A stretch of 64,000 nt of DNA from an uncultured bacterium (GTDB lineage Bacteria > Fidelibacterota > Marinisomatia > SCGC-AAA003-L08 > GCA-2689995): positions 66,872-130,871 of the forward strand of contig CAZGWH010000001.1 of assembly GCA_964529325.1 (NCBI GenBank), read 5' to 3'. A program made the position numbers and the translations under genes. Positions 10,825-54,700 of the stretch are shown here, piece after piece; position 1 is the stretch's first letter, and every line of letters starts with the position of its first letter. Below the pieces are notes generated by a model that made no database searches, was not told the DNA's origin, and saw only the letters and a list, made by a program, of their open reading frames with translations.

Positions 10825-13005
10825 ATGAATATGAAAAAGATAATTAAAGCATCTGATTTGAAATCATATTATTTCTTTCTCACATTTCTGATATATTCTA
10901 TTTCTTTTTGTAACGAATACCCTAAAATTGGACTCGTATTATCTGGAGGTGGAGCAAAAGGGTTTGCACATATAGGTGCATTGAAAATATTAGATTCTTT
11001 AGAAATACCGATAGATTATATTGTGGGAACAAGTATCGGTGCTATTGCTGGTGCAATGTATTCCATTGGATTTTCTGGAAATGAAATTGAACAAATTGCT
11101 CATAATACAAATTGGGAATCCATGTTTACCGATCAAGTTCCAAGGCGAAGCCTGCCCTATTTTGAAAAAAAAGATTTTGGAAAATATCAACTTGAATTTA
11201 GGCTAAATAAATTAAAACCTGTGGAACCAGATGGATTTATTCAGGGTCAAAGTGCATTATTAGAATTAAATAAAATATTTTCAAAACAAAATAAAATTAT
11301 GGATTTTAGCAAATTTAAAATTCCATTTAAGTGTATTGCAACGGATATAATTACAGGAAATGAAGTCATAATTGATAGAGGTGTACTACCCAAAGCCCTT
11401 CGAGCATCACTGTCAATTCCAACCATTTTTGCACCTATAATTTGGGGAGATTCTCTTTTAGTTGATGGAGGAGTAATTAATAATTTACCAACGGATATTG
11501 TAAAAGAAATGGGTGCGGATATTATTATTGCAATCGATGTAGGTACACCAATGAAAAACAAATCTCAATTAAATGGATTCCGTGAAATAATGGAACAAGC
11601 GATGGGAATATTAGAATATGAAATTGAAGCAAAAAATTCAAAACTTGCAGATTTAATTATAAAACCTGACTTGAAAAATTATAAATCTTCAGATTTTTCT
11701 AATAAAAAAATTAATGGAATGGTAAAAAAAGGATTATTAGCGACACAAAAACATATACCTGAATTAATTAAAATAAAAAATAAATCAAAATTTATTGAGA
11801 TTACAAATAATCTACAAATTCAAAAACAAATTAATATTCATGAAATAAAAATATTCGGATTAAAAACATTCTCACCCACTTTTATTCATCGACTTTTAGG
11901 TATTTCAAAAAATTCAGAAATTTCAATAGAAAAACTAAATAGTAAAATAAATAATATTTATGGTTTAGGGTATTTTAAAATTATAGAATATTATTTTGAA
12001 GAAAATAATAATAAAACTAATTTGATTTTAAAAATAATTGAACAACCCAAAAACAAATTAAGATTTGGAATAAAATGGGATCATGAACATCAAATAATAA
12101 TAACTTCCAATGTTCAATTATCAAATATTCCATTTTCAGGAATTCGATTTGAAAACCAATTTACATTTGGAGGAATTAGACACAACCAACTTAATATTTA
12201 TTATCCAAGTAAAACATTAAACTATCCTATTTATCCATTTTTAAGAATAATTGATAGTTGGCAACCAATAACAAAATATAATAATTATGGTGAAAAAATT
12301 GCAACATTGGATTATTACCAACAGTATTTATCGATAGGATTTGGAACAACAATTGGAAATTATTGGGCATCTGAAATTGATTATAAAATTGGTAATTCAA
12401 CATTAGATAGTGAATTTGAAACAACATATATTGAAGATATTTTATATAAACACAAATATTTTGAAATGGCTTCTTTTGAATTTGTATTAGATAATTTAAA
12501 TAATAACCTATCTCCCCAAAGAGGGGTAAATATTTCTATATCTGGCGATTATAGTTTAAAATATGGGAAGTATAATTTTCATACAATAAATTCTTTTTTT
12601 GATTCTTATTTACCAATTAAAAAACATACCGTTAGAAATTTATTCTATTTTAATTTTGTTAATGGAAATGATATCCCATTTGAATATTATTTAATTAATG
12701 AGGATGAAAAGTTTCATGCAGGTATTCCACGATTTGGACTTTTTGGTGAAAAATTAATTGGAATGAGAAATGAACTTATATACCAATATAAAAAAGATAT
12801 TTTCTTCCATTTATTTTACAATCCAATTGTTTTTGCGCAATATAAAGATTTAAAAATTCAATTGAAAAATGCTGGAGGAATTATGGTTAGTTTAAAATCG
12901 CCCCTTGGGCCAATAAATTTGACATGGAGTTTTTCTCCAAATAGTTTATATTTACCAAGTCATTTTATAACAAATTTTTACTTATCAGCAGGATATGAAT
13001 TTTAA
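10825..13005 (+). CDS. Patatin-like phospholipase with POTRA/Omp85-type C-terminal barrel (PlpD-like, type Vd autotransporter)
   Basis: 726 aa. Oxyanion motif SGGGAKG, lipase serine GTSIGA (GxSxG) and catalytic Asp in VDGGVINNLP. The C-terminal half is beta-strand-rich and ends in YEF, which is barrel-like. Size and architecture match my recollection of Pseudomonas PlpD. Confidence 0.8.
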   Translation: MNMKKIIKASDLKSYYFFLTFLIYSISFCNEYPKIGLVLSGGGAKGFAHIGALKILDSLEIPIDYIVGTSIGAIAGAMYSIGFSGNEIEQIAHNTNWESMFTDQVPRRSLPYFEKKDFGKYQLEFRLNKLKPVEPDGFIQGQSALLELNKIFSKQNKIMDFSKFKIPFKCIATDIITGNEVIIDRGVLPKALRASLSIPTIFAPIIWGDSLLVDGGVINNLPTDIVKEMGADIIIAIDVGTPMKNKSQLNGFREIMEQAMGILEYEIEAKNSKLADLIIKPDLKNYKSSDFSNKKINGMVKKGLLATQKHIPELIKIKNKSKFIEITNNLQIQKQINIHEIKIFGLKTFSPTFIHRLLGISKNSEISIEKLNSKINNIYGLGYFKIIEYYFEENNNKTNLILKIIEQPKNKLRFGIKWDHEHQIIITSNVQLSNIPFSGIRFENQFTFGGIRHNQLNIYYPSKTLNYPIYPFLRIIDSWQPITKYNNYGEKIATLDYYQQYLSIGFGTTIGNYWASEIDYKIGNSTLDSEFETTYIEDILYKHKYFEMASFEFVLDNLNNNLSPQRGVNISISGDYSLKYGKYNFHTINSFFDSYLPIKKHTVRNLFYFNFVNGNDIPFEYYLINEDEKFHAGIPRFGLFGEKLIGMRNELIYQYKKDIFFHLFYNPIVFAQYKDLKIQLKNAGGIMVSLKSPLGPINLTWSFSPNSLYLPSHFITNFYLSAGYEF

Positions 13006-13636
13006 ATTAATCTTTATTACTTTGTTTTCAATTAGTGTTTTATTAAGTACAATATATTCAAAACACTTGAAAATATATAAAAACTTTTTTGTATTAAAAC
13101 CATTAACATTAATTTCAATTATAATAATGGGAGTACTATCACAAAATATTGATCGAAATATATTGAATCAACTCATTCTAATTGGAATATTATTTTCTCT
13201 AATAGGTGATATTTTATTAATGTTTGGAAAAAAAGAATTTTTAATTGGAATGGGTGCATTTTTTTTAACCCATATATTTTATATTAATGCATTTATTTTA
13301 GATGGATTTCAATTGAATATTATTTTTATTTTTTTTACATCTTTATTTTCAATATTATTTTATTTATTTATTTATTCCTCATTAAACTCACATAAAATCC
13401 CTGTATTAATTTATTCTTTGGCGATTAGTACAATGCTTATTACGTCAAGATCATATTTTCAATTACATGATGATATAAATGGGAAATTAATTTTATTAGG
13501 TGCAATTTTATTTACAATTTCTGATATTTTATTAGCAATAAAACAATACAAAGGTGAATTTCCATATTGTTCAACATTTGTTTATCTCACATACTTTTCA
13601 GGACAATATTTTATTTGTTTAACAATGTGGTATTAA
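12995..13636 (+). CDS. YhhN-family membrane protein (lysoplasmalogenase-like)
   Basis: 213 aa with about eight TM helices and YhhN-like FSLIGDILLM and FTISDILLA motifs. It overlaps the patatin gene stop by 11 nt. Confidence 0.65.
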   Translation: MNFKLIFITLFSISVLLSTIYSKHLKIYKNFFVLKPLTLISIIIMGVLSQNIDRNILNQLILIGILFSLIGDILLMFGKKEFLIGMGAFFLTHIFYINAFILDGFQLNIIFIFFTSLFSILFYLFIYSSLNSHKIPVLIYSLAISTMLITSRSYFQLHDDINGKLILLGAILFTISDILLAIKQYKGEFPYCSTFVYLTYFSGQYFICLTMWY

Positions 13637-13728
13637 GAAAACTAATTACAAATTGAAATCATTTCACAAAGTTTATCTATATAGAACTTTAATAAATTAA
13701 CCATATTAATTAAATAGGAATTTTATAA

Positions 13729-14259
13729 ATGAAAATTATCAGTACAACAATTATATTACTTTTAAACATAGGTATTTTATTTAGCGAAAATACAGGGCTT
13801 CCAAATGTAAAATTAAAGGATTTCGATAAGAAAAGAGTTGCTATGAATACTCTGGCAAAGGATGGTCCTATTCTTATAAACTTTTGGACAATGGCATGCG
13901 AACCGTGCAAAAAAGAAATGAAATATTTAAATAAATTTCATAATAAATATGCAGAAAAAGGGTTTCAAGTATTTTCAATAAACATGGATACTCCTCGAAG
14001 TATGGCAAAAGTAAAATCATACATTAAGTCCACAGGATATAATTTTACAGTTCTTTCAGACCCTCGTTCAGAATCATTTAGAAAATTAGGTGCAAAAGCA
14101 ATGCCTCTCATATTATTAGTAAACAAAGATGGAAATATCTATAAACGACATACTGGATATAATCCCGGAGATGAAATTGGGTTAGAAAATGAAATTAAAG
14201 AATTAATTATTCATAATTATCCAGAAACAACTTTTGAATCAAAGACAGAAAGTAGATAG
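13729..14259 (+). CDS. TlpA/ResA-like periplasmic thiol:disulfide oxidoreductase (thioredoxin fold)
   Basis: Signal peptide, CxxC motif in FWTMACEPCKKEMP, and a cis-Pro region (AMPLILLVNKDG). Confidence 0.8.
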   Translation: MKIISTTIILLLNIGILFSENTGLPNVKLKDFDKKRVAMNTLAKDGPILINFWTMACEPCKKEMKYLNKFHNKYAEKGFQVFSINMDTPRSMAKVKSYIKSTGYNFTVLSDPRSESFRKLGAKAMPLILLVNKDGNIYKRHTGYNPGDEIGLENEIKELIIHNYPETTFESKTESR

Positions 14260-16361
14260 TGAAAATATATTTAATTATTTTTTTATCGTTCACCTTTACT
14301 CAAACGGATATTAATTTTTCCCTTGAATCTAAATTTGGTGAAGGGACTAATATTACAAATGAAGGAAGTACAGAAAAGCCTTATAATTATTTTGAAAATA
14401 TTCTAGATGTAAATATGCAATTTTCTTCTGGAGTTTCATTATGGTCACAATGGGAATATAGTGAACCACCCATTTTTGGTGTAAATAAAAATGGTCTAAA
14501 TAAATTTTATTTTGAGTATAGTGAGGATGTGTTTAATGTAAAAGTGGGTGATATTTATACATTATATGGACGCGGTCTTTCATTAAATATGGTGATAAGC
14601 CAAAATGTTGATTTAGATAATAGTATTAGAGGATTAGAATTTGAGTTTTACCCTTCAGATTATCTGCGTGTTTTTTCGCTTGTTGGAAAAGGCAGATATG
14701 ATTATCGGACAAACCCAGCACAAACCATTTCAGATAGGTGGGTAAATAATCGTGTTTATAGCATTGGTATGGATTATGATTTTAATCAATTGGGAATATT
14801 TCAAATGTATTATTTAAATCAATCTTCTGAAATTGATGAATCCATGATGAATTTATATAATAATGAACATCTTGATACGCGTTTAGGAAAAGAGTTTTAT
14901 GACAGAGTTTCTTATGAAGAATATCGAACAGATACTCTTTCCTCCAAAATAATAAATTTAAATTGGACAAATTCTATTGGACTGATTGACTATTATTTTG
15001 AGTATTCAGGAAATAATTATTCAAAATTATTAGGAGATGATACTGATGGATATAAAATTTATGGCTCACTCTCCACCTATCTCGCTGGATTTGGAATTAC
15101 CTATGAATACAAAGATTATAATGAACCATATTTTATTCAATCATTGGGTGGTGCACCAATTGTATACCGAGAATCTACTTCAATACTAGGTTCACGATAT
15201 AATCATTCAATGAATTTTAATGATGAAATAGGACATCAAATTGAAATCCAATATGCAATTAATGAAAACTTGAATTGGATGGTAAACGCATCGCAATCAA
15301 ATTCTCATGTTGGAAAATATTTATCAATTGATATTGATTCATTAGCAAATGAATCAACGCAAAATTATATCCACTCAAACCCATTTAATTTAGTGTTTAT
15401 GCAAGGAAATGATGAGGATTTAGCCTTTAAACCATTTAGACAATTTTACACTGAATTTTCAGGGTATACATTTAATAATCATTTATTTTTTCAAGTTGGA
15501 ATTGACCTTTTAGATGATGTGTTTAAATATCATGATACAAAAGTTTATGATTATGGTGATATTAATATTGATAATTATATTCATTTTGTAGATTCGTCTC
15601 TTTCTATTTGGAATATAGAAGAATTGAATCTTGTCACCAAAAATTACAATAATAATCTGTCAAATTTTAGCGGGATATGGAACGATTATTTTAATTTATG
15701 TGAAAGTTTAGGGGATTATATTTGTCCTGGACAAACAGCGAATGAATATGCAGACTCAACCATATTTTCAAGTTATGGAATTAGTTATGAAGATTCATTA
15801 GCAAACCTTTTTTCAAATTATGAATTTAATTATGAAAATAGAGAGAATGAGTTAAAAGTTGAATCTACAAAAGCTAGATCTGATAGCTTAAAATCAAAAA
15901 AGTATGAATATACAGAACAAACAGTTGTCACTTTACCCATGCGTTTTTCATGGAATTTTGGTGATGGTAGTTCAATTTCTACCTATTGGGAACATCAATG
16001 GAGAAATGTAAATGCAAGCCATGATATTTTATTACTCGATGGAACTATTGATAGTAGGCTAACAAAAATCGAAAATTACTATAATCAGTACTTTTCAATA
16101 TCATATCGTCATCCTAAAAAGTGGTCAATCACTTTATTTTATGACGGCGAAACACATGATAAAAAATTAGGTGGTGAAATTTGGTCTGATAAATATAATG
16201 ATTGGAAAGGTGCAGATTTCACCTTTGACATGAATTCAAGTAGTCAATTATCTATTTTTTATGGAAGCCAAAAAGGTGGGAGAATTTGTGCAAATGGTGT
16301 GTGTGCTGACCAACCCGGATTTAAAGATGGTTTTAAATTAACATATCGAAGCTTCTTTTAA
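14259..16361 (+). CDS. Putative outer-membrane beta-barrel protein, function unknown
   Basis: GTG start overlapping the TlpA-like stop (taGtg). It has a signal peptide, an aromatic/Asn/Tyr-rich alternating pattern, and a C-terminal ...LTYRSFF with terminal Phe, an OMP signature. Confidence 0.5.
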   Translation: MKIYLIIFLSFTFTQTDINFSLESKFGEGTNITNEGSTEKPYNYFENILDVNMQFSSGVSLWSQWEYSEPPIFGVNKNGLNKFYFEYSEDVFNVKVGDIYTLYGRGLSLNMVISQNVDLDNSIRGLEFEFYPSDYLRVFSLVGKGRYDYRTNPAQTISDRWVNNRVYSIGMDYDFNQLGIFQMYYLNQSSEIDESMMNLYNNEHLDTRLGKEFYDRVSYEEYRTDTLSSKIINLNWTNSIGLIDYYFEYSGNNYSKLLGDDTDGYKIYGSLSTYLAGFGITYEYKDYNEPYFIQSLGGAPIVYRESTSILGSRYNHSMNFNDEIGHQIEIQYAINENLNWMVNASQSNSHVGKYLSIDIDSLANESTQNYIHSNPFNLVFMQGNDEDLAFKPFRQFYTEFSGYTFNNHLFFQVGIDLLDDVFKYHDTKVYDYGDINIDNYIHFVDSSLSIWNIEELNLVTKNYNNNLSNFSGIWNDYFNLCESLGDYICPGQTANEYADSTIFSSYGISYEDSLANLFSNYEFNYENRENELKVESTKARSDSLKSKKYEYTEQTVVTLPMRFSWNFGDGSSISTYWEHQWRNVNASHDILLLDGTIDSRLTKIENYYNQYFSISYRHPKKWSITLFYDGETHDKKLGGEIWSDKYNDWKGADFTFDMNSSSQLSIFYGSQKGGRICANGVCADQPGFKDGFKLTYRSFF

Positions 16362-16459
16362 CAATATTGTTACAAATTATATTAATATAATTTATATAAA
16401 CTATTATTATATTTAAAGTAACTAAATATAAATAATTTAACTAAATAAGGAATTGAAAT

Positions 16460-18031
16460 ATGAAAAAAATATCTCTACTAATATTACTAACTTTATCGAT
16501 TGTAAGTGCACAAACTTATGATATGGGAGATGTAATTAGTGAAGACCATCAAAATCAAAGTTTTGATATTTGTTACGGTGACGACAATTCATTATTTCAA
16601 TTCTCTGAATTAAATGGTGCGTTAAATAATGATGGCAAATATTGGATAACCTTCATTGATATGGCTGCAACTTGGTGAGGCCCATGTTATAACGACATCG
16701 GTTCGATGGACGCACATGCTGATTATTGGATGGAACCTGAAGATGGTGAAGATAATAATGAAAATGGTTTAGTTGATGAAAGTGTAAGATATATGGTTGC
16801 ACTTGCTGATATTGGTCAACCATATACGTGTGAACAATGGGGAGATGCAGGTATTAACGGAATTCCATTAATTGTTGAAGACCCTGGAACTATTTTTGGT
16901 TGGCTACACGATTCATATAATGCATACCCTTCTTATGCTATTTTAGATCATGAAATGAGGGTTGTTGATAAACCATGGCCTTATGGCTCAACTGATAATT
17001 TAATTCAAAGTCTATATGAAACTTGTGAAGAAGCAGGATTATGTGGAGCAGTATCTGATTTAGACAATGACGGACTAGTTGGTTCAGATGATAATTGCCC
17101 GAATGATTATAACCCAAATCAAGATGATAGTGATGATGATGGATTGGGTGATTTATGTGATGAATGTTTAAATTCTTCTGGTGATTTAAATGAAGATGGG
17201 TTTATTAATATTACGGATGTAGTTGTAACGGTAAACATTGTATTAAATGGTGGAATAAACTCAAATGCATTTACAGAATGTGAAAAATCCAATGCAGATT
17301 TTACAGGTGATGGAATAATTAATGTATTAGATATTATTCAAGTTGTTAATGTAATTTTGGGAAATACTGCACAATACTGCAATTGTAATAATAGTAATTT
17401 AGATTTAAATAAAATCTCTGGTAGTGTTGAAGCATCATTTATAACACAATCAAATGATTTAATTATTAATTTGGAATCTACTCATTCATTTAGTGGTGTA
17501 CAATTTTTTATTCCCGGTAAAAATACTGATATTAAATTACTTGACAATAGCCATATTAATTTAGAAGCTAACTATTTTAATAATACGACAACTGTAATTG
17601 CCTATTCATTATTAAATCAAGCATTTGATAGTAAAAATGTAATATTTACAATAAATAATGGAGCACATTTAAATATACAAGATATTCAAATAATTATTGG
17701 AGATACCCATGGAAGGGAAATGGAACTTATAAAATCTAATAATGGTACTGTATTCCAAAATGGACCATATGTTTTTGAATTATCAAATATATATCCAAAC
17801 CCATTTAATCCAACAGCAGAAATTAGTTTTTCGCTTGCAGAGGCTGGGTACATTACATTAATGGCGTATAACACAAATGGACAACAAGTGGGAACTATAT
17901 TTGATGGCTATCAAGAAAATGGAATTCATTCTTATTCTTGGCATGCAAGTAATCTGCCATCAGGTGTATATTATGTCAAATTGTCTGATGGTGTTAATCA
18001 ACAATTTAAAAAAGCAATTTTATTAAAATAA
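16460..18031 (+). CDS. Candidate selenoprotein: secreted thioredoxin-fold (W-U-G-P-C) / TSP type-3 repeat / dockerin-like / T9SS C-terminal-domain protein, with the in-frame TGA at 16676-16678 read as Sec
   Basis: Track ORFs 16460..16678 and 16706..18031 are in the same frame, with TGA as the only interruption. Read-through gives IDMAATW-[TGA]-GPCYNDIGSMDAH. The paralogue at 18048..19541 aligns as IDMSATW-C-APC. Also present are a signal peptide (VSA|Q), a TSP3 motif (DNCPNDYNPNQDDSDDDGLGDLCD), dockerin-like DLNEDGFINITD / DFTGDGIINVLD, and a T9SS CTD (YPNPFNPTAEISF...GVYYVKL...ILLK). Confidence 0.6.
16676..16678 (+). other. In-frame UGA, candidate selenocysteine codon
   Basis: TGA sits at the position of the N-terminal Cys of the CxxC redox motif. 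The aligned codon in the tandem paralogue is TGT at 18264-18266. Confidence 0.55.
16683..16718 (+). promoter_or_regulatory. Candidate bacterial SECIS-like stem-loop
   Basis: Hand-folded. The apical stem is CATCG (16696-16700) / CGATG (16704-16708) with loop GTT. CG (16693-94) / CG (16711-12) pairs lie after a small internal loop. The lower stem is CATGT (16683-87) / ACATG (16714-18). The structure starts 5 nt after the UGA. Confidence 0.4.
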
Positions 18032-18047
18032 AGAAAAGGAAGATTAT

Positions 18048-19541
18048 ATGATAAAAAATATAATTATAGGATTCGCATTAATTTCAACCATTTTTCCAGC
18101 AATTTATGGAGTTGGTGATGTAGTTAGTTCGTCTCATCAAAATGTGAGTTACCCCGTATGTTATGGTGAATATGAAACAGAAGGGTTTAAACTTTCGGAT
18201 TTAAATGGTGAATCAAATGGAGGAGTTTTTAAAGTATCTTTAATAGATATGTCTGCTACATGGTGTGCCCCATGCGTTGCTTTTATTCCTGAGTTTGATG
18301 GAATTGTTGATGATTGGTCTGATAATGATGGAGTATTTATTTTTAATGCATTAATGGATATGAATCAACCCTATTCTTGTGAACAATGGGGAGATATGGG
18401 TATTTCAAATATTCCTGTTATTATTGACGATGGTAATGGTGGTGGTAATAGTATTTTTAGTTTTTTTAATACAGGAAGTGCAATTCCAAGTACGGTATTT
18501 ATTGATCATGAAATGAGAGTTCAATATATGTCAAATCAAGTTACGAGTAATCAAGCCAGTAATATAATTCAAAATATGCTAGGTGATTGTACTATGTGTG
18601 GTAATCCTGATTATGATAGTGACTTTGTTTTAAATGAGACCGATAATTGTCCAAATGATTATAACCCAGACCAAGAAGATGAAGATTATGATAATCTTGG
18701 AGATGTATGTGATTCTTGTCACAATATGTCTGGAGACCCTAATGATGATTTATTTGTAAATATTACAGATGTAATTTTAACTGTAAATCTAATTTCAACA
18801 GGAGGAATAACTTCAGAGTTTTATAATGATTGTGAAAAAGCAGATGCAAATTTTAATAGTGATGATACAATTAATGTTTTAGATATCATTCACATGATTA
18901 ATATAATTCTTGGTAACACTGTGTTAAACTCTAATAATGATAATAAGGCTACAGTTAATTTCAATCAAGATAATAACCAATTAAAAATTACGATTAACAG
19001 TGATATTGAAATTTCGGGAATACAATTAAATTCTAATTCACAATTTTCAAATGTTAAATTATTACAAAATAATGAAAAAGAATTAATTTCAAATGAAGAT
19101 ATTATATTAGCTTATTCATTACAAAATATTCCATTTGAAAATAATAAAATAGATTTGGTTTTAGATAATGCTCATAATTTAAATATTGATGATATTCAAA
19201 TAGTAGTGAGTGATATATTCGGAAATGAATTAACATTAGTAAAATCAGAAAATGGTAATATTTATAGTAATGGAGTATATGAGTTTGAATTAGATAATTC
19301 ATATCCAAATCCATTTAATCCAACTACAAAATTGAATTTCTCCTTACCTATGGATGCTAATATTCAATTAGTTGCATATAATATTCATGGGCAAAAAGTT
19401 CAAGAAATTTATAGTGGATATAAGACTGTTGGCTCTCATCAATTCAATTGGAATGCATCTCATTTATCAAGTGGAATTTATATTGTTAAATTAATTTCAG
19501 AAAACCATCAAACAAGTATTCAAACAATACTAATGAAATAA
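18048..19541 (+). CDS. Secreted thioredoxin-fold (WCAPC) / TSP type-3 repeat / dockerin-like / T9SS C-terminal-domain protein (Cys paralogue of the upstream gene)
   Basis: 497 aa with a signal peptide. Contains IDMSATWCAPC, DNCPNDYNPDQEDEDYDNLGDVCD, DPNDDLFVNITD / NFNSDDTINVLD, and a CTD (YPNPFNPTTKLNF...GIYIVKL...ILMK). An RBS-like AAAGGAAG lies upstream, and the gene is 16 nt from the previous gene. Confidence 0.8.
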   Translation: MIKNIIIGFALISTIFPAIYGVGDVVSSSHQNVSYPVCYGEYETEGFKLSDLNGESNGGVFKVSLIDMSATWCAPCVAFIPEFDGIVDDWSDNDGVFIFNALMDMNQPYSCEQWGDMGISNIPVIIDDGNGGGNSIFSFFNTGSAIPSTVFIDHEMRVQYMSNQVTSNQASNIIQNMLGDCTMCGNPDYDSDFVLNETDNCPNDYNPDQEDEDYDNLGDVCDSCHNMSGDPNDDLFVNITDVILTVNLISTGGITSEFYNDCEKADANFNSDDTINVLDIIHMINIILGNTVLNSNNDNKATVNFNQDNNQLKITINSDIEISGIQLNSNSQFSNVKLLQNNEKELISNEDIILAYSLQNIPFENNKIDLVLDNAHNLNIDDIQIVVSDIFGNELTLVKSENGNIYSNGVYEFELDNSYPNPFNPTTKLNFSLPMDANIQLVAYNIHGQKVQEIYSGYKTVGSHQFNWNASHLSSGIYIVKLISENHQTSIQTILMK

Positions 19542-19570
19542 ATTCAATTTAAATTTTCAGTTTATTTTAA

Positions 19571-19596
19571 AGGCAGAGTTATCTCTGCCTTTTTTA
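19571..19596 (+). terminator. Rho-independent terminator
   Basis: AGGCAGAG-TTAT-CTCTGCCT followed by TTTTT, lying 30 nt after the stop at 19541. Confidence 0.75.
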
Positions 19597-19672
19597 TTTA
19601 ATAAATTATTTCAAACTACTATAGAAATAAACCAATATTTAGATAGTTAAAAAATTCGTAACTTTTCTTGCT

Positions 19673-22366
19673 TTGGAACCCCTCTATATTACAAATACCA
19701 TTAAAAAATATTGTTATATATTTATTATATTTTCAATATTCTTATCACACATAAATGCAAGCAGGCTTTGGGGAATTATTCAAAAAGAGAATAAACCATT
19801 TATACATGATTATGAAATAATTTATTCTCAATTACTAGAATTTCAACTTCAAGGTAATTTAGGAAATTATCACGATTGGCCATATAATAGTAATGACGGT
19901 TGGGGATTTGTAAAATATAAAAATAAAATTCTTAATGATTCATTTGATAATATTCATTCTTCAATTACAGCAATCAATGACTCTCAATTTATCCAAGAAA
20001 TCCATAATATATTAAACCCAACAAATAATATTCGGATTGCATTTGGGCATGTTCGAAATGCAACTACAGGGGCTTTTTCTATACCTAACCCCCACCCATT
20101 TACTTATCAATTTAATAATAAAACATATTCATTTGCACATAATGGGACAATTGACAAAATCGGATTATTAAATTTATTAACAGAAAATGGAACCGATTCT
20201 ACATGGATTTTTAATAATCCACCAAATTCATATAATTGTGGTAATTGGAATGATGAAGGATTTAATTGTTTAGTTGATTCAGAATTATATTTTTTATGGA
20301 TTATAAAAAATATAATTGATTTAAATGATGATTATAGGGGAATTACGAATGCCTTAAATATAATTGAAAATACCGAATTTGATATCGATAATATTAATGG
20401 AGAACAACGAAATTTCATTATGTCCAATGGTACGGAATTATTTGCTTATAAATCTTCAGATGACATACATGAAGAATCTAGATATGAATTATTTTATCAA
20501 TCATTTCCAAATCATTTTTCTATAATGTCAACACCACATTCAGTTGATAGTGGATATATTCCAATAAATGATCAAGAATTATTAATTTTTCGAAATGATG
20601 TAATTACACCAATATCTTTATATCCAGTTAATGAAATGAATTATGAAAATGATTATCAAATACTTCAAGATATAATTACAATAAATAATTTAAATGAAGT
20701 AAATTGTAATTCATGTAATAGTGACGGTATATTACAACCATTGGAATTAGGAAATCAGGTTTGGGAAAACAATCGTTTAATTGAATTTAATATTTCAAAT
20801 TACACTACGGATGAAATTAAATACTATCCGAGTTCAATAAAATTATTATCTGAATTAGTTTCTTTTAATGGACCTTTCACTGAAATAATTCCTCAACTAA
20901 ATTGTGTAGAATTAAATAGTCCGTTATCAGATTTTTTTCAATGTAATTCTTTAGGTTGTTCAGATCCAATAGCATGTAATTATAATTATTTTTCAAGTGG
21001 AAATGATGGATCATGTGAATATTCACCCAACAATTATGATTGTGATGGAAATTGTTTAACAGCAATTAATGAAAATAATGATTGTTTAGAAATTTATGAA
21101 TTTGGTTGTTTAGATACACTGGCTTTTAATTATAATCCATTAGCTATTATTGATAATGGAAAATGTATGTATGATAATATTATTTTATTTAAACGAGGAA
21201 ATAATTTAATCAGTTTACATGGCATTCCTGAAACAAGTAATACCGAATTGTTAATGCAACCACTTGAAGAAAGTGGTCTTGAAATAAATTTTATATTAGG
21301 GCAAGGCATGGGATACTTTAAAGTAGATGACGAATGGTCAGGGAACTTACATTCACTCGATATAAATTCAGGCTATTGGTTTAATGTCGGTTCAAATTTC
21401 ACATGGCATATTCCTTTACAAAATAGACCTAATTTACCAACGGATTGTATTTCATATAATCTAGAGGAAGGAAATAATTTAATATCTTATTCAGGTGAAG
21501 ATGATAATTTTACAATTAATTCATTAAATGGTGATGTATTTTCTGAAAATTTTCAATTTATTTTAGGACAAACCGTCGGATTATTTAATACAGAATCTGG
21601 ATGGTCTGGCAATTTATTTAATTTAAAAAATAAAAAAGGGTATTGGGTAAATTCCCTTTACCCAATTGATTTTTATTGGGGTACAAATTGTGAAGAATCA
21701 ACAATTATTGAAGGGTTAAATAAAAATGTTCAATCTAAACTTTCTTATAATCAATCGACAAATCAAGCCTTTTATTTAATTGATGAATTAATAATTGAGA
21801 ACTATTCACCGAATGAAAATGATATATTAATCGCTTATCATCAAGACCAATTAATAGGTAGTACTAAATGGTCTATTGAAAAAATAATTCTACCCATAAT
21901 GGGCAGAGATTTATCCTCTCAAACGGAAGGATATATTGAAGAAGGTGATGTTCCAGAAATAAAATTATACCAATATAATACAGGAAAACTTATTAATTTA
22001 AATGGTGACATTAACTCTTGGCATAATTTATCTGTAAATCTAATAAATAATCTTCATACAAAAACAGAAATTACACCAACCCAATTCAACATAAATCCTG
22101 CATATCCCAACCCATTTAATGCGAAAACAACATTGAGTTTTACAATACCGAATGAATCACAAATAAATATTGAATTATTTGATTTAACAGGGAAAAAAAT
22201 AAAGTCAATTATAAATACAATTTACAAACCTGGAAATCATAAAATCCTAATTAATGGGAAGAATCTCTCAACAGGAGTTTATATCATTAAAATATCTATG
22301 TTCAAAAATTCAAATAGTTTATCACCTATTTTTCAAAGCACTCAAAAAATTATTTTATTAAAATAA
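19673..22366 (+). CDS. Secreted YafJ-type class II glutamine amidotransferase-like (Ntn hydrolase) domain protein with Cys-rich linker, two GNNL...GYW modules and a T9SS C-terminal domain
   Basis: TTG start. Signal peptide ...FLSHINA|SRLWG. Motifs align to my recollection of E. coli YafJ: DGWG, GHVRNATTG...NPHPF, FAHNGTI, VDSELYFLW. CTD: YPNPFNAKTTLSF...GVYIIKI...IILLK. Confidence 0.7.
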   Translation: MEPLYITNTIKKYCYIFIIFSIFLSHINASRLWGIIQKENKPFIHDYEIIYSQLLEFQLQGNLGNYHDWPYNSNDGWGFVKYKNKILNDSFDNIHSSITAINDSQFIQEIHNILNPTNNIRIAFGHVRNATTGAFSIPNPHPFTYQFNNKTYSFAHNGTIDKIGLLNLLTENGTDSTWIFNNPPNSYNCGNWNDEGFNCLVDSELYFLWIIKNIIDLNDDYRGITNALNIIENTEFDIDNINGEQRNFIMSNGTELFAYKSSDDIHEESRYELFYQSFPNHFSIMSTPHSVDSGYIPINDQELLIFRNDVITPISLYPVNEMNYENDYQILQDIITINNLNEVNCNSCNSDGILQPLELGNQVWENNRLIEFNISNYTTDEIKYYPSSIKLLSELVSFNGPFTEIIPQLNCVELNSPLSDFFQCNSLGCSDPIACNYNYFSSGNDGSCEYSPNNYDCDGNCLTAINENNDCLEIYEFGCLDTLAFNYNPLAIIDNGKCMYDNIILFKRGNNLISLHGIPETSNTELLMQPLEESGLEINFILGQGMGYFKVDDEWSGNLHSLDINSGYWFNVGSNFTWHIPLQNRPNLPTDCISYNLEEGNNLISYSGEDDNFTINSLNGDVFSENFQFILGQTVGLFNTESGWSGNLFNLKNKKGYWVNSLYPIDFYWGTNCEESTIIEGLNKNVQSKLSYNQSTNQAFYLIDELIIENYSPNENDILIAYHQDQLIGSTKWSIEKIILPIMGRDLSSQTEGYIEEGDVPEIKLYQYNTGKLINLNGDINSWHNLSVNLINNLHTKTEITPTQFNINPAYPNPFNAKTTLSFTIPNESQINIELFDLTGKKIKSIINTIYKPGNHKILINGKNLSTGVYIIKISMFKNSNSLSPIFQSTQKIILLK

Positions 22367-22374
22367 AAAAGAAA

Positions 22375-24132
22375 TTGAAATCAATATTGAAATATTTATC
22401 TGGGTTAATTATAATAATTTCAATATTTTATTTTTGGATATTACCCTTATTTTCTCAAGATATCATTTTTATTAATGGTAAAATTATTACAATGGAATCA
22501 AAAAATAGTGAGTTTGAAGCTATTTATATTAAAGATGGGTTAATTTTTGAAATTGGTAATACCGAAGATATTATTAAAAATGATAATTGGAAAACGAAAG
22601 TAATAGATTTAAAAGGCAAGACGATGATGCCTGGGTTTATTGAAGCACATTGTCATCCAATCGGAACTGCAATAATTAATCAAGTCTTAAGCATTAGTGG
22701 ATATAACTATAATTCACGGGCAGAAATAATAAATGCAATTAAAACGGAAATTAAAAATCCAAATAATGATGATTGGCTAATTGTCTTCGGGTGGGACCCC
22801 GTAATGGTTGATGATTTAGAAAACCCATCATTATCTGAATTAAATGACATTTCACCAAACAGACCGTTGCTCATACTTACTCAAATGATGCATCATGGGT
22901 TTATCAATTCGGCAGGATATAAAAGAGCTAAAATAACTAAAGATTATCCAGAATTATCAGGAGCTGGTAAATTTTTAAAAGATGATAATGGTGAGCTTAA
23001 TGGAGTAATTTATGAAGTTACAGCTCTTCAATATATTTTAAAACAGCTCCCAAAAACACCATCATCAGCAATTAAATTATTATTAAATATACAATATTCA
23101 AAATATGCTAAAGCTGGTTTTACCTCAATTGGAGTTCTAGGTCCAATAGAAAAAGGTGGCTATCCTTTAGATTTCATGTATAATTTAGCTTCTCAAAAAA
23201 CAATGCCTATTCGAACTTTTATATATGGATTAGAGAACCAAATTGATAGTGCAAATTGGAAACCCAATTATGGTCATGATAATTTCCGCCTTAAAGGAGT
23301 AAAACTCTATATGGATGGTTCGCCATACACGGGTGGTGCTGCATTTAAAGATGCCTATGTAAATTCACATATTACTTTAAATCGAATTGGGTTAAAACCA
23401 AATCATTATGGTGAAGTAAATTATAGTTTAAATGAATTCATTCCAATTGTTGAAAAATACCATAATCAAGGCTTTCAAATTGCAACCCATGTGCAAGGTG
23501 AAATTGCAATAGATATCGCTTTAGATGCAATTGAATATGCATTGAATAAACAACCAAGAGAAAATCACAGACATAGGTTAGAGCATAATGCATTAATCAC
23601 AACAGAACAAATTAAAAGAGCAGAAAAATTAGGTGTAACCCTTAGTATATTTATTGACCATATTTATTATTATGGTGATAAGTTAGACCAAATCGTTGGT
23701 AAAGAAAGAACACAACGATATATGCCTTTAGGAACTGCAATGAAAGTTGGAAATTTTACAACTATTCATACAGATAATCCCGTTACGCCTGTAAATGCTC
23801 TACGGCCAGTAGAAACTGCAATTTTAAGAAAGACACGAAAAACAGGGCAAATAGTTGGAAGTCAGGAAAGATTGTCTAAATTTGATGCATTAAAAGCAAT
23901 TACCATAAATCCGGCATGGCAATTTATTGAAGAAAATAATATAGGCAGTTTAGAAATAGGTAAGTTTGCAGACTTAGTTATTTTATCAGAAAACCCGTTT
24001 GAAATAGATGCTGAAAATTATCAAAACATTAAAATTGAAAGTACTTGGTTGTCTGGGAAAAAAATAAATTCTTCAATATATAATTGGACAAATTTTAAAT
24101 TATCTATTCTTACTTTATGGGAAATGATTTAA
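22375..24132 (+). CDS. Metal-dependent amidohydrolase (Amidohydro_3-like)
   Basis: 585 aa, TTG start, N-terminal TM/signal anchor. Contains the HxH metal motif (IEAHCHPIG) plus later ATHVQGE and HRLEHN, typical of the amidohydrolase superfamily. Confidence 0.8.
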   Translation: MKSILKYLSGLIIIISIFYFWILPLFSQDIIFINGKIITMESKNSEFEAIYIKDGLIFEIGNTEDIIKNDNWKTKVIDLKGKTMMPGFIEAHCHPIGTAIINQVLSISGYNYNSRAEIINAIKTEIKNPNNDDWLIVFGWDPVMVDDLENPSLSELNDISPNRPLLILTQMMHHGFINSAGYKRAKITKDYPELSGAGKFLKDDNGELNGVIYEVTALQYILKQLPKTPSSAIKLLLNIQYSKYAKAGFTSIGVLGPIEKGGYPLDFMYNLASQKTMPIRTFIYGLENQIDSANWKPNYGHDNFRLKGVKLYMDGSPYTGGAAFKDAYVNSHITLNRIGLKPNHYGEVNYSLNEFIPIVEKYHNQGFQIATHVQGEIAIDIALDAIEYALNKQPRENHRHRLEHNALITTEQIKRAEKLGVTLSIFIDHIYYYGDKLDQIVGKERTQRYMPLGTAMKVGNFTTIHTDNPVTPVNALRPVETAILRKTRKTGQIVGSQERLSKFDALKAITINPAWQFIEENNIGSLEIGKFADLVILSENPFEIDAENYQNIKIESTWLSGKKINSSIYNWTNFKLSILTLWEMI

Positions 24133-51765: not shown

Positions 51766-54700
51766 TTATTTCATTAACACAATTTTCTGTGAAGATTGAA
51801 ATAAATCACTTTTAAAATTAACAATATATACGCCACTTGGATGATTTACAGCATTCCATTTAATTGTATGATATCCTGATTCAATATGTCCATCTATTAG
51901 TGTTTCAATTAATCGACCGTTGAGGTCAAATATCTGTAGAGACATTGCGTGTAATGTCTCAGGTATACCAAATTTAATTGTTGTTTCAGGATTAAATGGA
52001 TTAGGATATGCATTTGATAATTTCCACTTCTCTGGAATCACATCTTGAATATCCATTAACTTTTCAATAGATGTTACGCCTAAAGGTGACCATGGATAAA
52101 TTTTATTTGAATATCTATCTTCTGTTAAATTTATTTCAATACCATTATTTTTTATTAGTGTAAATTCAGGTGTATCTCCTATTTCACAGAATCCATCTGT
52201 ATCTTCAGTTAAATCTTTCCCCATTACAGGGATAGCTGAATGTTTACCATTCCATAACCCCGATCCCACATACACATCATTACAATAGGCAAGGATTATA
52301 TCTCCATTTTCTGCATTGTCAATTTCTTCAATTAAGTAAAATGCTTGCTCTGTTGATTGTACAAATTGGTATTCTTCTGGTATTTGATATGTCTCTTCCA
52401 TTCCAAGACCACTACTTTGTGGATTTGCACAATTATCATTTCCCCATGCAAACTGTGGATGTTCACCAATTCCATTTAGCCAATACCCTTTACTATTTTG
52501 CAATGAAACTAAATTTCCACTCCAACCATCTATGGTTTTAAATAAACCAAGTCCCTGGCCTAAAATGAAGTTGAAATTTTCCGTCGCATATTGTTCTCCT
52601 CCTAATGCTTCTAATGTAGCAATATTACCTTCACCCCATTTAAATGAAACTAAGTTATTTCCGTCTGAAAGTCCATATTCTTCACAGTTATTTATCATTT
52701 GTGAATATGAAATCTCCCGAGTTTGTGCTTCATCACCTTCATAATTTACCCAGTATCCTGAATACTTGTTTAAATTAACTAAATTACCACTCCATCCTTC
52801 ATTAGTATTAAAAATACCAAGACCCTGGCCAAGTATGAAATTAACTTCACTAGTTCCATTTAAAATATTTTCTAAAAAATTAATACTATTATTATCTTCT
52901 AATTCTCCAGGAAAACTCACAAGATTATTACCACCTTGAAAATCAATAATTACAATTTGACCATTATTAACTGTTACATCAAATCCATCAGTTATCGTCT
53001 CAACACCATCAGATATAGTGTAACTAATTGAATATACTTGTCCTGCATTTTCTTCGAGAGGAGACCAATTTATAATACTTCCTTCAATAACCATTCCTTC
53101 AGGTCCTGATATAAATGAGAAACTAATATCATCACCATCTACATCTTCTACTATAATTTGATATTGGTAAATTGATCCAACATAGGCATACACAATTGGA
53201 GATGATAATATTTCAGGTGCATCATTTACAGCAGAAATAGATATAGCCAATACCCTTGAATATATATTATGCTCTTCCTGTCCATCATTTGCTGTAATGG
53301 TAATATTTTCTTCTCCATTGGCATTTTCAATAGCAGTTATTATAAGATTACCATTGTCGTCTAATGTAATATTTACTAAATTAGATTCCGATGTTGTAAA
53401 ACTTATAACTTGATTAGACTCATTTTCAGGATGATTTATTTCTGTGGTAATGTTAATTATTTCGGTAAAATCTTCCGTTTGTTCAATACTTGTTGCACTC
53501 AAATTAAATTGAGGCATATCATTTACAGAAGTTACGATTAATGTAAATTCAGTTGTACTACTTTTTTGATTATTTTCATCATCATCTGTTGCAGTTAATG
53601 TAAGTGTTTCAGTTCCAAAATAGTCTTGCATTAAATTAAAACTCATTAACCCATTTGAAAATGAAATAACCGAGCCATTATTTCCAGAAACAGCAAACTC
53701 CATATTTGTAAATTCTGTACCTATGTCAGATACATAATCTTCAAGATTAATTGAAAAAACATCACTGTCTTCTTCTACGCTTATACTCGGTATTGCTGTA
53801 ATAACTGGCGTATCATTATTTACCGTTAGAAAAATTTCAGTCGTGGCTGAATATTCATGCAAAGAACCGACATCAGTTGCAATGATTTGCAATGCAGAAC
53901 TACCTGTCCATGTGGGATCTACAGCAGTTATAAAACCATTGACTTGGTCAGAAAAATCAACAAGGAAAAATCCTGCATTAATTAAATAAGGATTATCAGG
54001 TATTCCATTACTTGAATTTGCTGAAAATGTTAAATTTGCACTGGTGGGATATATATTTCCTCTTAAATCATCAAAGAATTTAAATTTAATTTCCTGTCCA
54101 TTTGTATTGGAGTAAATGGTCATAAAATATACCCAATTACCTGCAAAATCAATTGCAGTAGCAACTCCTCTAAGTTCACCATTACTAAATGCACCTAAAA
54201 TATGACTATTTCCTATTGCAGGGTCACCACCTGATTTAACAGACGCGGTAATGGTCATTGAAAGTTCAAAACCCGCTGGATTAATATTCCATGTTGGAGC
54301 AGGTAATGGTGATTCAAGAGCAGGAAAATCATATTCCCATGCAATATCATCACCGTCAAGTTCAATGATATTATCATTTAAATTTATAGGTGTAAAACTC
54401 TGTCCTATTTCTATTTCTTGGTCTGGGAAATTATCAAGAGAAGGTGCATGGTCTAAAGGTAATATTGAAAATATTACACCTTGTGAACCTGAAAATGATA
54501 ACTCAGATTGATCTGTTGCAGTAAAGAAAATTGTTTCGTTGCCAAGCCATTCATTATTTAATGGTGTAATTGTCGCAATACCATCAGTTAAGTTAACACT
54601 TAGATTCGTGTTCCCACTAGATGACCACTGTATTGGGTCATCATCTACTTCAAGTAAAAAGTCATTTAAATTAATATCATTAAATCCAATACCTTGCTCA

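Follow-up and report, generated by a model that had tools for sequence, protein, structure and literature searches.

The window analysed here, a 64-kb stretch (64,000 nucleotides) of a contig from an uncultured bacterium, carries at positions 13729–19599 four genes, all on the + strand and closed by a strong intrinsic terminator. They encode a TlpA-like thiol-disulfide reductase, an outer-membrane β-barrel of the DUF6029 family and two paralogous thioredoxin (Trx)-like proteins bearing the sorting domain of the type IX secretion system (T9SS), the first of which is almost certainly a selenoprotein; we refer to them below as the cassette. The window is low in GC (about 28%), and homologue searches identified metagenome-assembled genomes (MAGs) of Candidatus Neomarinimicrobiota (= SAR406, Marinimicrobia) as its nearest relatives. 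The open reading frames (ORFs) occupy positions 13729–14259, 14259–16361, 16460–16678 plus 16706–18031, and 18048–19541, and the TAG stop of the TlpA-like gene (14257–14259) shares one base with the GTG start of the barrel gene (14259–14261). The original prediction, made from the letters of the sequence alone, had placed at this locus four co-directional genes ending at a clean terminator, a TlpA-like CxxC protein and a 700-residue barrel joined by a GTG/stop overlap, all of which are present. Profile searches also showed that it had correctly read the domain architecture of the exported Trx-fold pair (UGPC and CAPC), with a thrombospondin type-3 (TSP3) repeat and dockerin, a β-rich region and a T9SS domain. 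The features of the locus are the following.

13729–14259, + strand: ResA/TlpA-like exported thiol-disulfide reductase, 176 residues, with an N-terminal signal peptide or anchor (Pfam)
13897–13908, + strand: CEPC active site of the TlpA-like protein, Cys57–Cys60 (translation, WTMACEPCKKE)
14259–16361, + strand: DUF6029 outer-membrane β-barrel, 700 residues, GTG start (PF19494, 60.9 bits for a cut-off of 27)
15567–15887, + strand: clade-specific helical insertion of the barrel, residues 437–543 (DSSP of the model)
16287–16304, + strand: conserved cysteines C677-x4-C682 (CANGVC), tip of the last β-hairpin (alignments and model)
16460–18031, + strand: secreted selenoprotein, 523 residues, with signal peptide, TlpA-like Trx domain (W-U-G-P-C), TSP3, dockerin, β-sandwich and T9SS C-terminal domain (CTD) (one frame, single TGA)
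16676–16678, + strand: in-frame UGA, almost certainly selenocysteine (Sec), at the nucleophilic position of a WCGPC-type motif (alignment with Cys codons)
16696–16708, + strand: hairpin resembling a selenocysteine insertion sequence (SECIS), CAUCG-GUU-CGAUG, with its loop 25–27 nt past the UGA (hairpin energies, covariation)
17054–17359, + strand: TSP type-3 repeat and dockerin of the selenoprotein, with EF-hand-like Ca sites (NF045500, NF047638, Dockerin_1)
17789–18019, + strand: T9SS type A sorting domain of the selenoprotein (PF18962, 5.2e-10; TIGR04183)
18048–19541, + strand: Cys paralogue, 497 residues, same architecture, WCAPC at 18264–18275 (Por_Secre_tail, 39.6 bits)
19569–19599, + strand: intrinsic terminator of the four-gene unit (10-bp stem at 19569–19592 with 5 GC pairs, 4-nt loop, T-run)

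The product of the first gene matched the Pfam families Redoxin (4.3e-24, 85.4 bits for a cut-off of 26.6) and AhpC-TSA (2e-22, 79.9 bits for a cut-off of 26), and its translation displays a hydrophobic N-terminal segment and the site W53-x-x-A-C57-E-P-C60, with the same CEPC dipeptide as the active site of ResA. Its top NCBIfam match was the ResA subfamily, at 82 bits for a cut-off of 170, while TlpA reached 52 bits (cut-off 230) and DsbE 49 bits (cut-off 123). Judging from these profiles, the protein is a member of the TlpA superfamily lying outside the named ResA, TlpA, DsbE/CcmG and StoA families.

The second gene encodes the barrel, whose PF19494 domain was found in all its homologues. 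An AlphaFold model built with 80 homologues (mean predicted local distance difference test, pLDDT, 86.2; predicted template-modelling score, pTM, 0.77) showed about 24–26 long strands by DSSP, and the protein combines a signal peptide with an aromatic last residue (…TYRSFF), as for outer-membrane barrels. Foldseek assigned a probability of 1.0 to the resemblance with such barrels, the matches being generic large barrels only: FimD, TonB-dependent receptors (including the copper transporter OprC), AlgE, Occ channels and MtrB. The lowest E-values were obtained with the FimD usher and TonB-dependent receptors, and the top query TM-score (0.41) with MtrB, which sheathes an electron-transfer route through the outer membrane.

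The best-conserved stretch of the barrel is the C-terminal FYGSQKGGxxCANGxCAxQPGF, which contains the cysteines that had been singled out as conserved-looking in the original prediction. C677 is invariant in both barrel alignments (18 and 80 homologues), and C682 is invariant among the 18 homologues and conserved in at least 90% of the 80, down to 25% identity. In the model, the pair sits at the tip of the hairpin formed by strands 674–678 and 681–685. A second pair, CESLGDYIC, is carried by the 107-residue insertion (residues 437–543), which is predicted to form long paired helices and is limited to the barrels of about 679–706 residues of one subclade; close relatives keep a C-x6-8-C arrangement. 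In outer-membrane barrels both termini are periplasmic and the connections from odd to even strands are external loops. By this strand-parity rule, the Cys hairpin, the helical insertion and the conserved loops 70–76, 100–122 and 289–321 of the modelled barrel would be external or folded into the lumen. The conserved loops and the charged in-strand residues visible in the alignment suggest a specific lumen. No established role, and so no unrelated one, was found for DUF6029, whose literature consists of a single remark on an HHpred resemblance to Wzi-type polysaccharide barrels (PMC9603273).

The two last genes carry the active sites ATW-U-GPC (gene 3) and ATW-C-APC (gene 4). Both proteins exceeded the cut-offs of PF18962 (Por_Secre_tail; 39.9 bits for gene 3 and 39.6 for gene 4, cut-off 27) and TIGR04183 (34.9 and 36.6 bits, cut-off 23), and three further CTD-bearing proteins in the window imply, at the sequence level, that the organism possesses a T9SS. 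In gene 3, Dockerin_1 was recognised by Pfam at residues 241–299 (29.4 bits), and residues 199–300 matched the C-terminal part of NF045500 (1.2e-15) as well as NF047638. Over genes 3 and 4, NF045500 reached 57.8 and 61.2 bits for a cut-off of 200 and covered profile positions 272–376 only, corresponding to TSP3/dockerin; from their sequences, both proteins lie outside this family, their catalytic domain being TlpA-like instead of Omp28-like.

The catalytic domains scored below the Pfam thresholds in gene 4 (Thioredoxin, 21.1 bits for a cut-off of 23.5; AhpC-TSA, 20.9 for 26), and neither family matched gene 3. The AlphaFold model of the Cys paralogue (pLDDT 81.6) placed its Trx domain by Foldseek on ResA, DsbE, TlpA-like proteins and Etrx1/2 (TM-scores of 0.67–0.77, rmsd of 3.3–4.2 Å), and the cis-proline P147 is invariant in the alignment of the Trx-T9SS family. 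A TlpA/ResA-like fold and a conserved cis-proline are what the proposed Trx nature of these N-terminal domains called for, and the model places them in a divergent TlpA-like Trx subfamily, recognised by structure and not by Pfam thresholds. The family site is WC/U-x-x-C, most commonly U-G-P-C, that is, the canonical WCGPC of thioredoxin with Sec as the attacking residue. A peroxiredoxin-type function was rejected: the site is WC/UxxC, and the peroxidatic motif PxxxTxxC/U, as given in PMC13188914, is absent.

Gene 3 almost certainly encodes a selenoprotein, because its UGA is conserved in frame, aligns with cysteine codons and precedes a covarying hairpin confined to UGA forms, TGA being otherwise a normal stop in this DNA. 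The segments 16460–16678 and 16706–18031 form one frame broken by the TGA at 16676–16678 alone. Relatives whose barrels are 86%, 53%, 41% and 37% identical to that of the window show the same split, into ORFs of 72–97 and 409–441 residues, and translation through the split yielded …DMAATW*G(P/T)C… in each of the three relatives whose DNA was translated. A motif scan of the fetched loci, with later additions, found W-UGA-x-x-C in more than 40 distinct genes, while TGT or TGC occupies this codon in about 10 paralogues. Of the 41 long ORFs in the window, 9 have TGA as their stop, so that a reassignment of UGA was rejected.

Across the family, the hairpin comprises 4–9 bp and a G/U-rich loop of 3–5 nt beginning 20–32 nt past the UGA, with stems that vary by paralogue: CAUCG/CGAUG, CAUCUUCU/AGAAGAUG, CAUCAAUAA/UUAUUGAUG, UCCC/GGGA, ACCCAU/AUGGGU and GCAGGC/GCCUGC. 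The mean energy of the best hairpin was −3.8 kcal/mol for Sec forms, −1.1 for Cys paralogues and −2.4 for shuffles. Sec forms differed from Cys paralogues (Mann–Whitney p = 1.5e-4) and, as a set, were stronger than synonymous-codon shuffles keeping the protein (Wilcoxon p = 5e-7), these p-values being approximate for phylogenetically related sequences. With 35 UGA-downstream regions aligned by MAFFT, RNAalifold predicted no pairs, because the register of the hairpin shifts by 1–6 nt between paralogues; per-sequence energies with controls and a same-register seed alignment were used in its place. In the latter, compensatory CG-to-AU changes were observed at 3 of the inner 5 pairs, and 74% of the cells were paired, versus 28–52% with the partners slid. 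A covariance model (R1) recovered mostly orthologues by sequence and added three Sec sites, which is no independent proof of structure.

In public databases, these genes appear as a 72-residue ORF and a protein of about 400–440 residues called "T9SS type A sorting domain-containing" or hypothetical. The N-terminal domain, used as query in an exhaustive HMMER search, gathered 562 clusters at 50% identity (E up to 1e-3); among the best 150 of the 562 representatives, 69 span the active site, 74 start just past it and 5 stop there, which means that about half of the 150 are cut at the UGA. A distant minimal Sec form was found on the − strand at L007:5739-6572, convergent to TlpA-DUF6029, in which a Trx-like domain (…SW-UGA-PTC) is fused straight to a T9SS CTD. 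It is split into 67 and 131 residues by gene callers, and its hairpin (−10.5 kcal/mol) is the strongest in the set.

The conservation of the cassette was analysed by a DUF6029 profile scan with one genome per species, which yielded 47 loci; their MAGs bear the labels Marinimicrobia, Ignavibacteria, Bacteroidetes and Rhodothermaceae, with one Chloroflexota among them, and their barrels are 24–58% identical to that of the window. By tblastn, the gene immediately upstream of DUF6029 is TlpA-like in all 44 loci having upstream sequence, and a surface-addressed CxxC/UxxC protein is encoded directly downstream in 47 of 49 loci. Reciprocally, three Trx-T9SS homologues, picked for their long contigs only, were all located downstream of TlpA-DUF6029. 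The synteny that the original prediction had proposed to look for in related genomes is therefore well established: about 50 loci show this gene order, far beyond chance. In the gene-called Marinimicrobia loci, the TlpA stop and the barrel start overlap by 1–44 nt (8/8). When an Ignavibacteria DUF6029 profile was used for a third homologue search, the matches were all MAGs, with no cultured organism among them.

The downstream partner is of two types, Trx-T9SS in 26 and Omp28-like in 21 of the 47 loci. The Trx-T9SS partners, found in Marinimicrobia, occur as one to four tandem genes, mainly Sec forms. The Omp28-like partners, lipoproteins or T9SS proteins found in Ignavibacteria, Bacteroidetes and Rhodothermaceae, share an invariant …ELFTNTSCxPC… motif, resemble Trx, Grx and DUF1223 weakly in the region of the CxxC, and match NF033782 and the N-terminal part of NF045500, both below the cut-off. 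In most of them a lipobox precedes acidic residues (SCESND), and two carry a T9SS CTD instead. Against PDB sequences, the Omp28-like profile matched only Omp28 of P. gingivalis (2r2c, C-terminal half), besides weak Trx/Grx/DUF1223 hits. Homology between the Trx-like and Omp28-like partners was set aside, the profile–profile probability being 6% with the CxxC turn alone aligned, and the two are treated as analogous. Because the partner switches both domain type and export route and keeps its CxxC/UxxC and its surface address, the comparison of these sequences argues for a functional redox link to the cassette and not for mere co-location.

Some loci depart from the simple order. In the 53% relative, a gene for an NAD-dependent epimerase/dehydratase (L001:10154-11152) stands between the barrel and selenoprotein genes, the order being otherwise intact. 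At L058:3173-5362, the Trx-T9SS array past DUF6029 is interspersed with two other genes, encoding a Cys-rich protein ending in …YEFDW-UGA and a secreted cytochrome c of the PSCyt1 type (CGGCH) that carries a dockerin at its C terminus and lacks a T9SS domain.

Among known systems, the closest in logic is the pneumococcal pathway leading from CcdA1/2 through Etrx1/2 to MsrAB2, in which reducing power from inside repairs or activates surface proteins. Both systems share surface-exposed thioredoxins of the TlpA/ResA fold, and the Trx domain of the window superposes on Etrx1/2 with TM-scores of 0.71–0.75. However, the Etrx proteins are membrane lipoproteins of a Gram-positive organism, with no outer membrane to cross, and have no barrel partner, selenocysteine, T9SS, TSP3 or dockerin modules, all of which are present in the cassette. 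A dedicated barrel appears to be the answer to the outer-membrane crossing that the cassette faces. The DsbD/CcdA pathways to TlpA, ResA and CcmG likewise move cytoplasmic reducing power outward by a thiol-disulfide cascade, and gene 1 belongs to the same fold class, with CEPC as in ResA. These pathways stop in the periplasm (cytochrome c, Sco/CoxB, Msr), whereas the partners in the cassette are an outer-membrane barrel and surface proteins. To our knowledge, the periplasm is the end point of the envelope redox pathways described so far, and thiol reduction at the cell surface is undescribed for Gram-negative bacteria.

MtrCAB and LptD/LptE are also built on large barrels that enclose a partner, a concept shared with the sheath role proposed for the DUF6029 barrel of about 24–26 strands. 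In MtrCAB, multihaem cytochromes pair with the barrel, while the cassette is free of haems, cytochromes and CxxCH proteins; the likeness of DUF6029 to MtrB is of the kind seen among large barrels generally, and by E-value the FimD usher and TonB-dependent receptors match better. With the NF045500 family ("Omp28-related selenoprotein"), the window proteins have in common the C-terminal TSP3/dockerin module (1e-15 to 1e-16), while the Omp28-like partners found elsewhere match its N-terminal part and NF033782 ("Omp28 family outer membrane lipoprotein"), all these scores being far below the cut-offs (about 22–61 bits for 150–200).

Trx-fold UXXC selenoproteins from marine metagenomes have been reported as Trx, Prx-like and thiol-disulfide isomerase-like (cd02966) proteins, according to Zhang, Fomenko & Gladyshev 2005 (PMC1088965) and a 2026 review (PMC13188914). 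As described there, they likewise combine Sec in place of the first Cys of CxxC, a Trx fold, coexisting Cys homologues and a marine origin, but are single redox domains, whereas the window form is T9SS-secreted and multidomain; this comparison is one of descriptions only. Full-text searches (DUF6029; Omp28 + selenoprotein) and the selenoproteome papers, in the portions available, gave no report of the secreted multidomain form or of a TlpA-DUF6029 cassette. The cassette appears to be an extracytoplasmic reducing pathway taken to the cell surface, with a selenoprotein as terminal enzyme, in a form that is undescribed.

We propose, with middling confidence, that these genes constitute an envelope-spanning thiol/selenol reducing cassette, which arms the cell surface of bacteria of the Fibrobacteres–Chlorobi–Bacteroidetes (FCB) group with Trx-type reductases. 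The components, their addresses, the types of their active sites and their persistent linkage are observed in the loci themselves; the route of reducing power over the outer membrane is what we infer. An inner-membrane donor of the CcdA/DsbD type, encoded elsewhere, would keep the TlpA-like protein reduced, and the surface Trx or Omp28 proteins would draw their reducing equivalents from the latter. The barrel would be the dedicated outer-membrane partner, either as a docking sheath in whose lumen periplasmic and surface partners meet, or through its own cysteine pair. Disulfides or oxidised thiols outside the cell could then be reduced by the surface Trx proteins, with adjoining surface Cys-nucleophile hydrolases or dissolved organic disulfides as plausible targets. 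Sec is highly nucleophilic and resists irreversible over-oxidation, and at the attacking position it would offer high reactivity and such resistance in oxic seawater. A barrel acting as a single-route translocon, or as a mere neighbour, would hardly account for a partner that swaps family and route and never loses its CxxC/UxxC or the barrel.

A more specific version, which we regard as doubtful, makes DUF6029 the outer-membrane part of a thiol/selenol-disulfide relay running from the periplasmic TlpA-like reductase to the surface Trx/Omp28 proteins. Such a relay might work through the CxNGxC pair or through the active sites of partners enclosed in the barrel lumen. In it, the barrel would play at the outer membrane the part of DsbD, as an analogue of the MtrCAB conduit based on thiols. 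The passage of electrons to redox proteins at the surface had been suggested in the original prediction; synteny, fold and architecture bear out the rest of that reading, the electron-transfer step itself staying an inference.

Several observations weigh against the proposed reducing cassette. The extracellular position of the barrel cysteine pair is deduced by strand parity, and any contact of the barrel with TlpA is conjectural. No CcdA/DsbD donor was found among the 41 ORFs of at least 150 residues in the 64-kb window, nor were Sec-insertion (sel) genes. T9SS type A cargo may be released instead of retained, which would preclude its recycling. The cassette loci are mutually related, so that their counts are non-independent events. 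In two Ignavibacteria loci, TlpA-DUF6029 is followed by a gene for a CcmB-like membrane protein (L046:8741-11701 and L053:3890-4555) and by no surface CxxC protein, the Omp28-like gene being absent there; in L046, NrfH/NrfA-like multihaem proteins come next. These neighbours hint at a cytochrome-maturation role of TlpA in the two loci. Finally, the 5-bp hairpin of the window is weak when taken alone (p = 0.27 against synonymous-codon shuffles), and a 71-nt segment of the window folded with a non-significant z of +1.1.

This last point would fit a UGA that is a true stop or a pseudogene lesion, gene 3 then being a 72-residue peptide and an N-terminally truncated T9SS protein, as would the splitting of the gene by gene callers and the lack in the window of any tRNA, tRNA-Sec included (ARAGORN), or of any Rfam match at gathering thresholds. 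We consider this highly improbable: in more than 40 sequences, a single conserved Trx domain extends over both sides of the UGA, the codon falls exactly at the position of the catalytic cysteine, the covarying hairpin is confined to UGA forms, and a truncated product would lose β-1 and the active site. A rather unlikely alternative restricts the system to maturation, the periplasmic TlpA-like protein being a holdase-reductase that keeps the Cys/Sec of the barrel and surface proteins reduced in transit, with no later supply of electrons; the surface proteins would act stoichiometrically or draw on environmental reductants. TlpA/ResA-family proteins usually reduce specific clients in transit, such as apocytochromes, each client here bears Cys or Sec, T9SS cargo acquires its fold in the periplasm, ahead of export, and the tight TlpA–barrel coupling would fit a dedicated folding factor, as in the handling of LptD disulfides. 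Maturation alone leaves unexplained, however, why a dedicated barrel is kept with partners of two export routes and why the surface proteins possess a catalytic, reductase-type WCGPC/WUGPC site with its cis-proline, and spending Sec on an enzyme that turns over once would be expensive.

An uptake function is unlikely in our view. The surface Trx/Omp28 protein would form a mixed disulfide or selenosulfide with a thiol-reactive nutrient (organic disulfides, polysulfide, selenium species or a thiophilic metal) and so capture it, DUF6029 would admit the nutrient and the TlpA-like protein would release it by reduction. The barrel is porin/transporter-like, with TonB-dependent receptors (OprC), AlgE and Occ channels among its Foldseek matches, its conserved loops and charged in-strand residues point to a specific lumen, and in the 86% relative TlpA is directly preceded by an ArsR-MerT/HMA insert. 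Yet the barrel has no TonB box or plug domain, the cassette includes no conserved periplasmic binding protein or inner-membrane transporter, and the neighbouring genes vary. Very unlikely, lastly, is the absence of any functional link, TlpA-DUF6029 serving the maturation of cytochrome c or of a cuproprotein, or polysaccharide export, with the Trx-T9SS proteins as mere neighbours, perhaps co-regulated under oxidative stress. The CcmB-like and NrfHA genes downstream in L046 and L053, the HHpred link to Wzi-like barrels (PMC9603273) and the epimerase gene between barrel and Sec gene in L001 would agree with it. It is opposed by an adjacency kept in 47/49 loci over 24–58% barrel identity despite the replacement of the partner by another CxxC family, by the three reciprocal look-ups, which all hit the cassette, and by the lack of OPX or Wza genes nearby.

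Around the cassette, other genes deserve description. In P0002, the 86%-identical relative, an ArsR-type HTH regulator, a MerT-HMA fusion and a 73-residue ORF lie between YhhN and the TlpA-like gene; this insert, a thiophilic-metal module at the 5′ end of the P0002 cassette, is missing from the window (13636–13729). Just upstream, the window encodes at 10825–13005 a 726-residue protein, also kept in P0002, in which a patatin-like phospholipase (3e-29) is fused to POTRA domains and an Omp85 barrel. Past the terminator, positions 19673–22366 encode an 897-residue T9SS protein with an N-terminal class-II GATase/Ntn-hydrolase domain (GATase_4, 1.5e-13; weakly EgtC-like), followed at 22375–24132 by an Amidohydro_3 protein, and at L057:1-615 a GATase_4-dockerin gene is immediately upstream of TlpA. 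From its sequence, the GATase_4-like T9SS protein could be a Cys-nucleophile client or a partner processing γ-glutamyl thiols.

A C25 gingipain-like peptidase of about 1500 residues with a dockerin is encoded directly upstream of TlpA at L004:2936-7438 and in the same position in L010, L011, L012 and L056; these five loci belong to one Marinimicrobia subclade, with 46–53% identity between loci. The presence beside the cassette of surface Cys-nucleophile hydrolases, the C25 peptidase and the Ntn/GATase_4-like protein, is weak evidence that such enzymes may be its clients. Further away, on the − strand, the window encodes two giant T9SS cargo proteins of 1740 (51766–56988) and 2243 residues (57150–63881), one with Big_9 and cadherin-like domains and the other with LamG and dockerin. 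Dockerin modules are thus common in the T9SS cargo of this organism, and no cohesin partner was seen.

If correct, the proposed cassette would account for the function of DUF6029 and of the Omp28-like lipoproteins, both unexplained so far, and it points to a thiol chemistry sustained outside the outer membrane in Gram-negative bacteria of the FCB group. The T9SS-secreted selenoprotein family, mis-annotated until now, is widespread in ocean Marinimicrobia, and secreted selenoenzymes bear on the marine demand for selenium. The occurrence of the Omp28-type version in MAGs of Ignavibacteria, Bacteroidetes and Rhodothermaceae means that cultured relatives, if they carry it, would make the system genetically testable. 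For the uncultured SAR406 bacteria themselves, the cassette may explain how surface cysteine hydrolases stay active, or how disulfide-bonded organic matter is processed, in oxic water.

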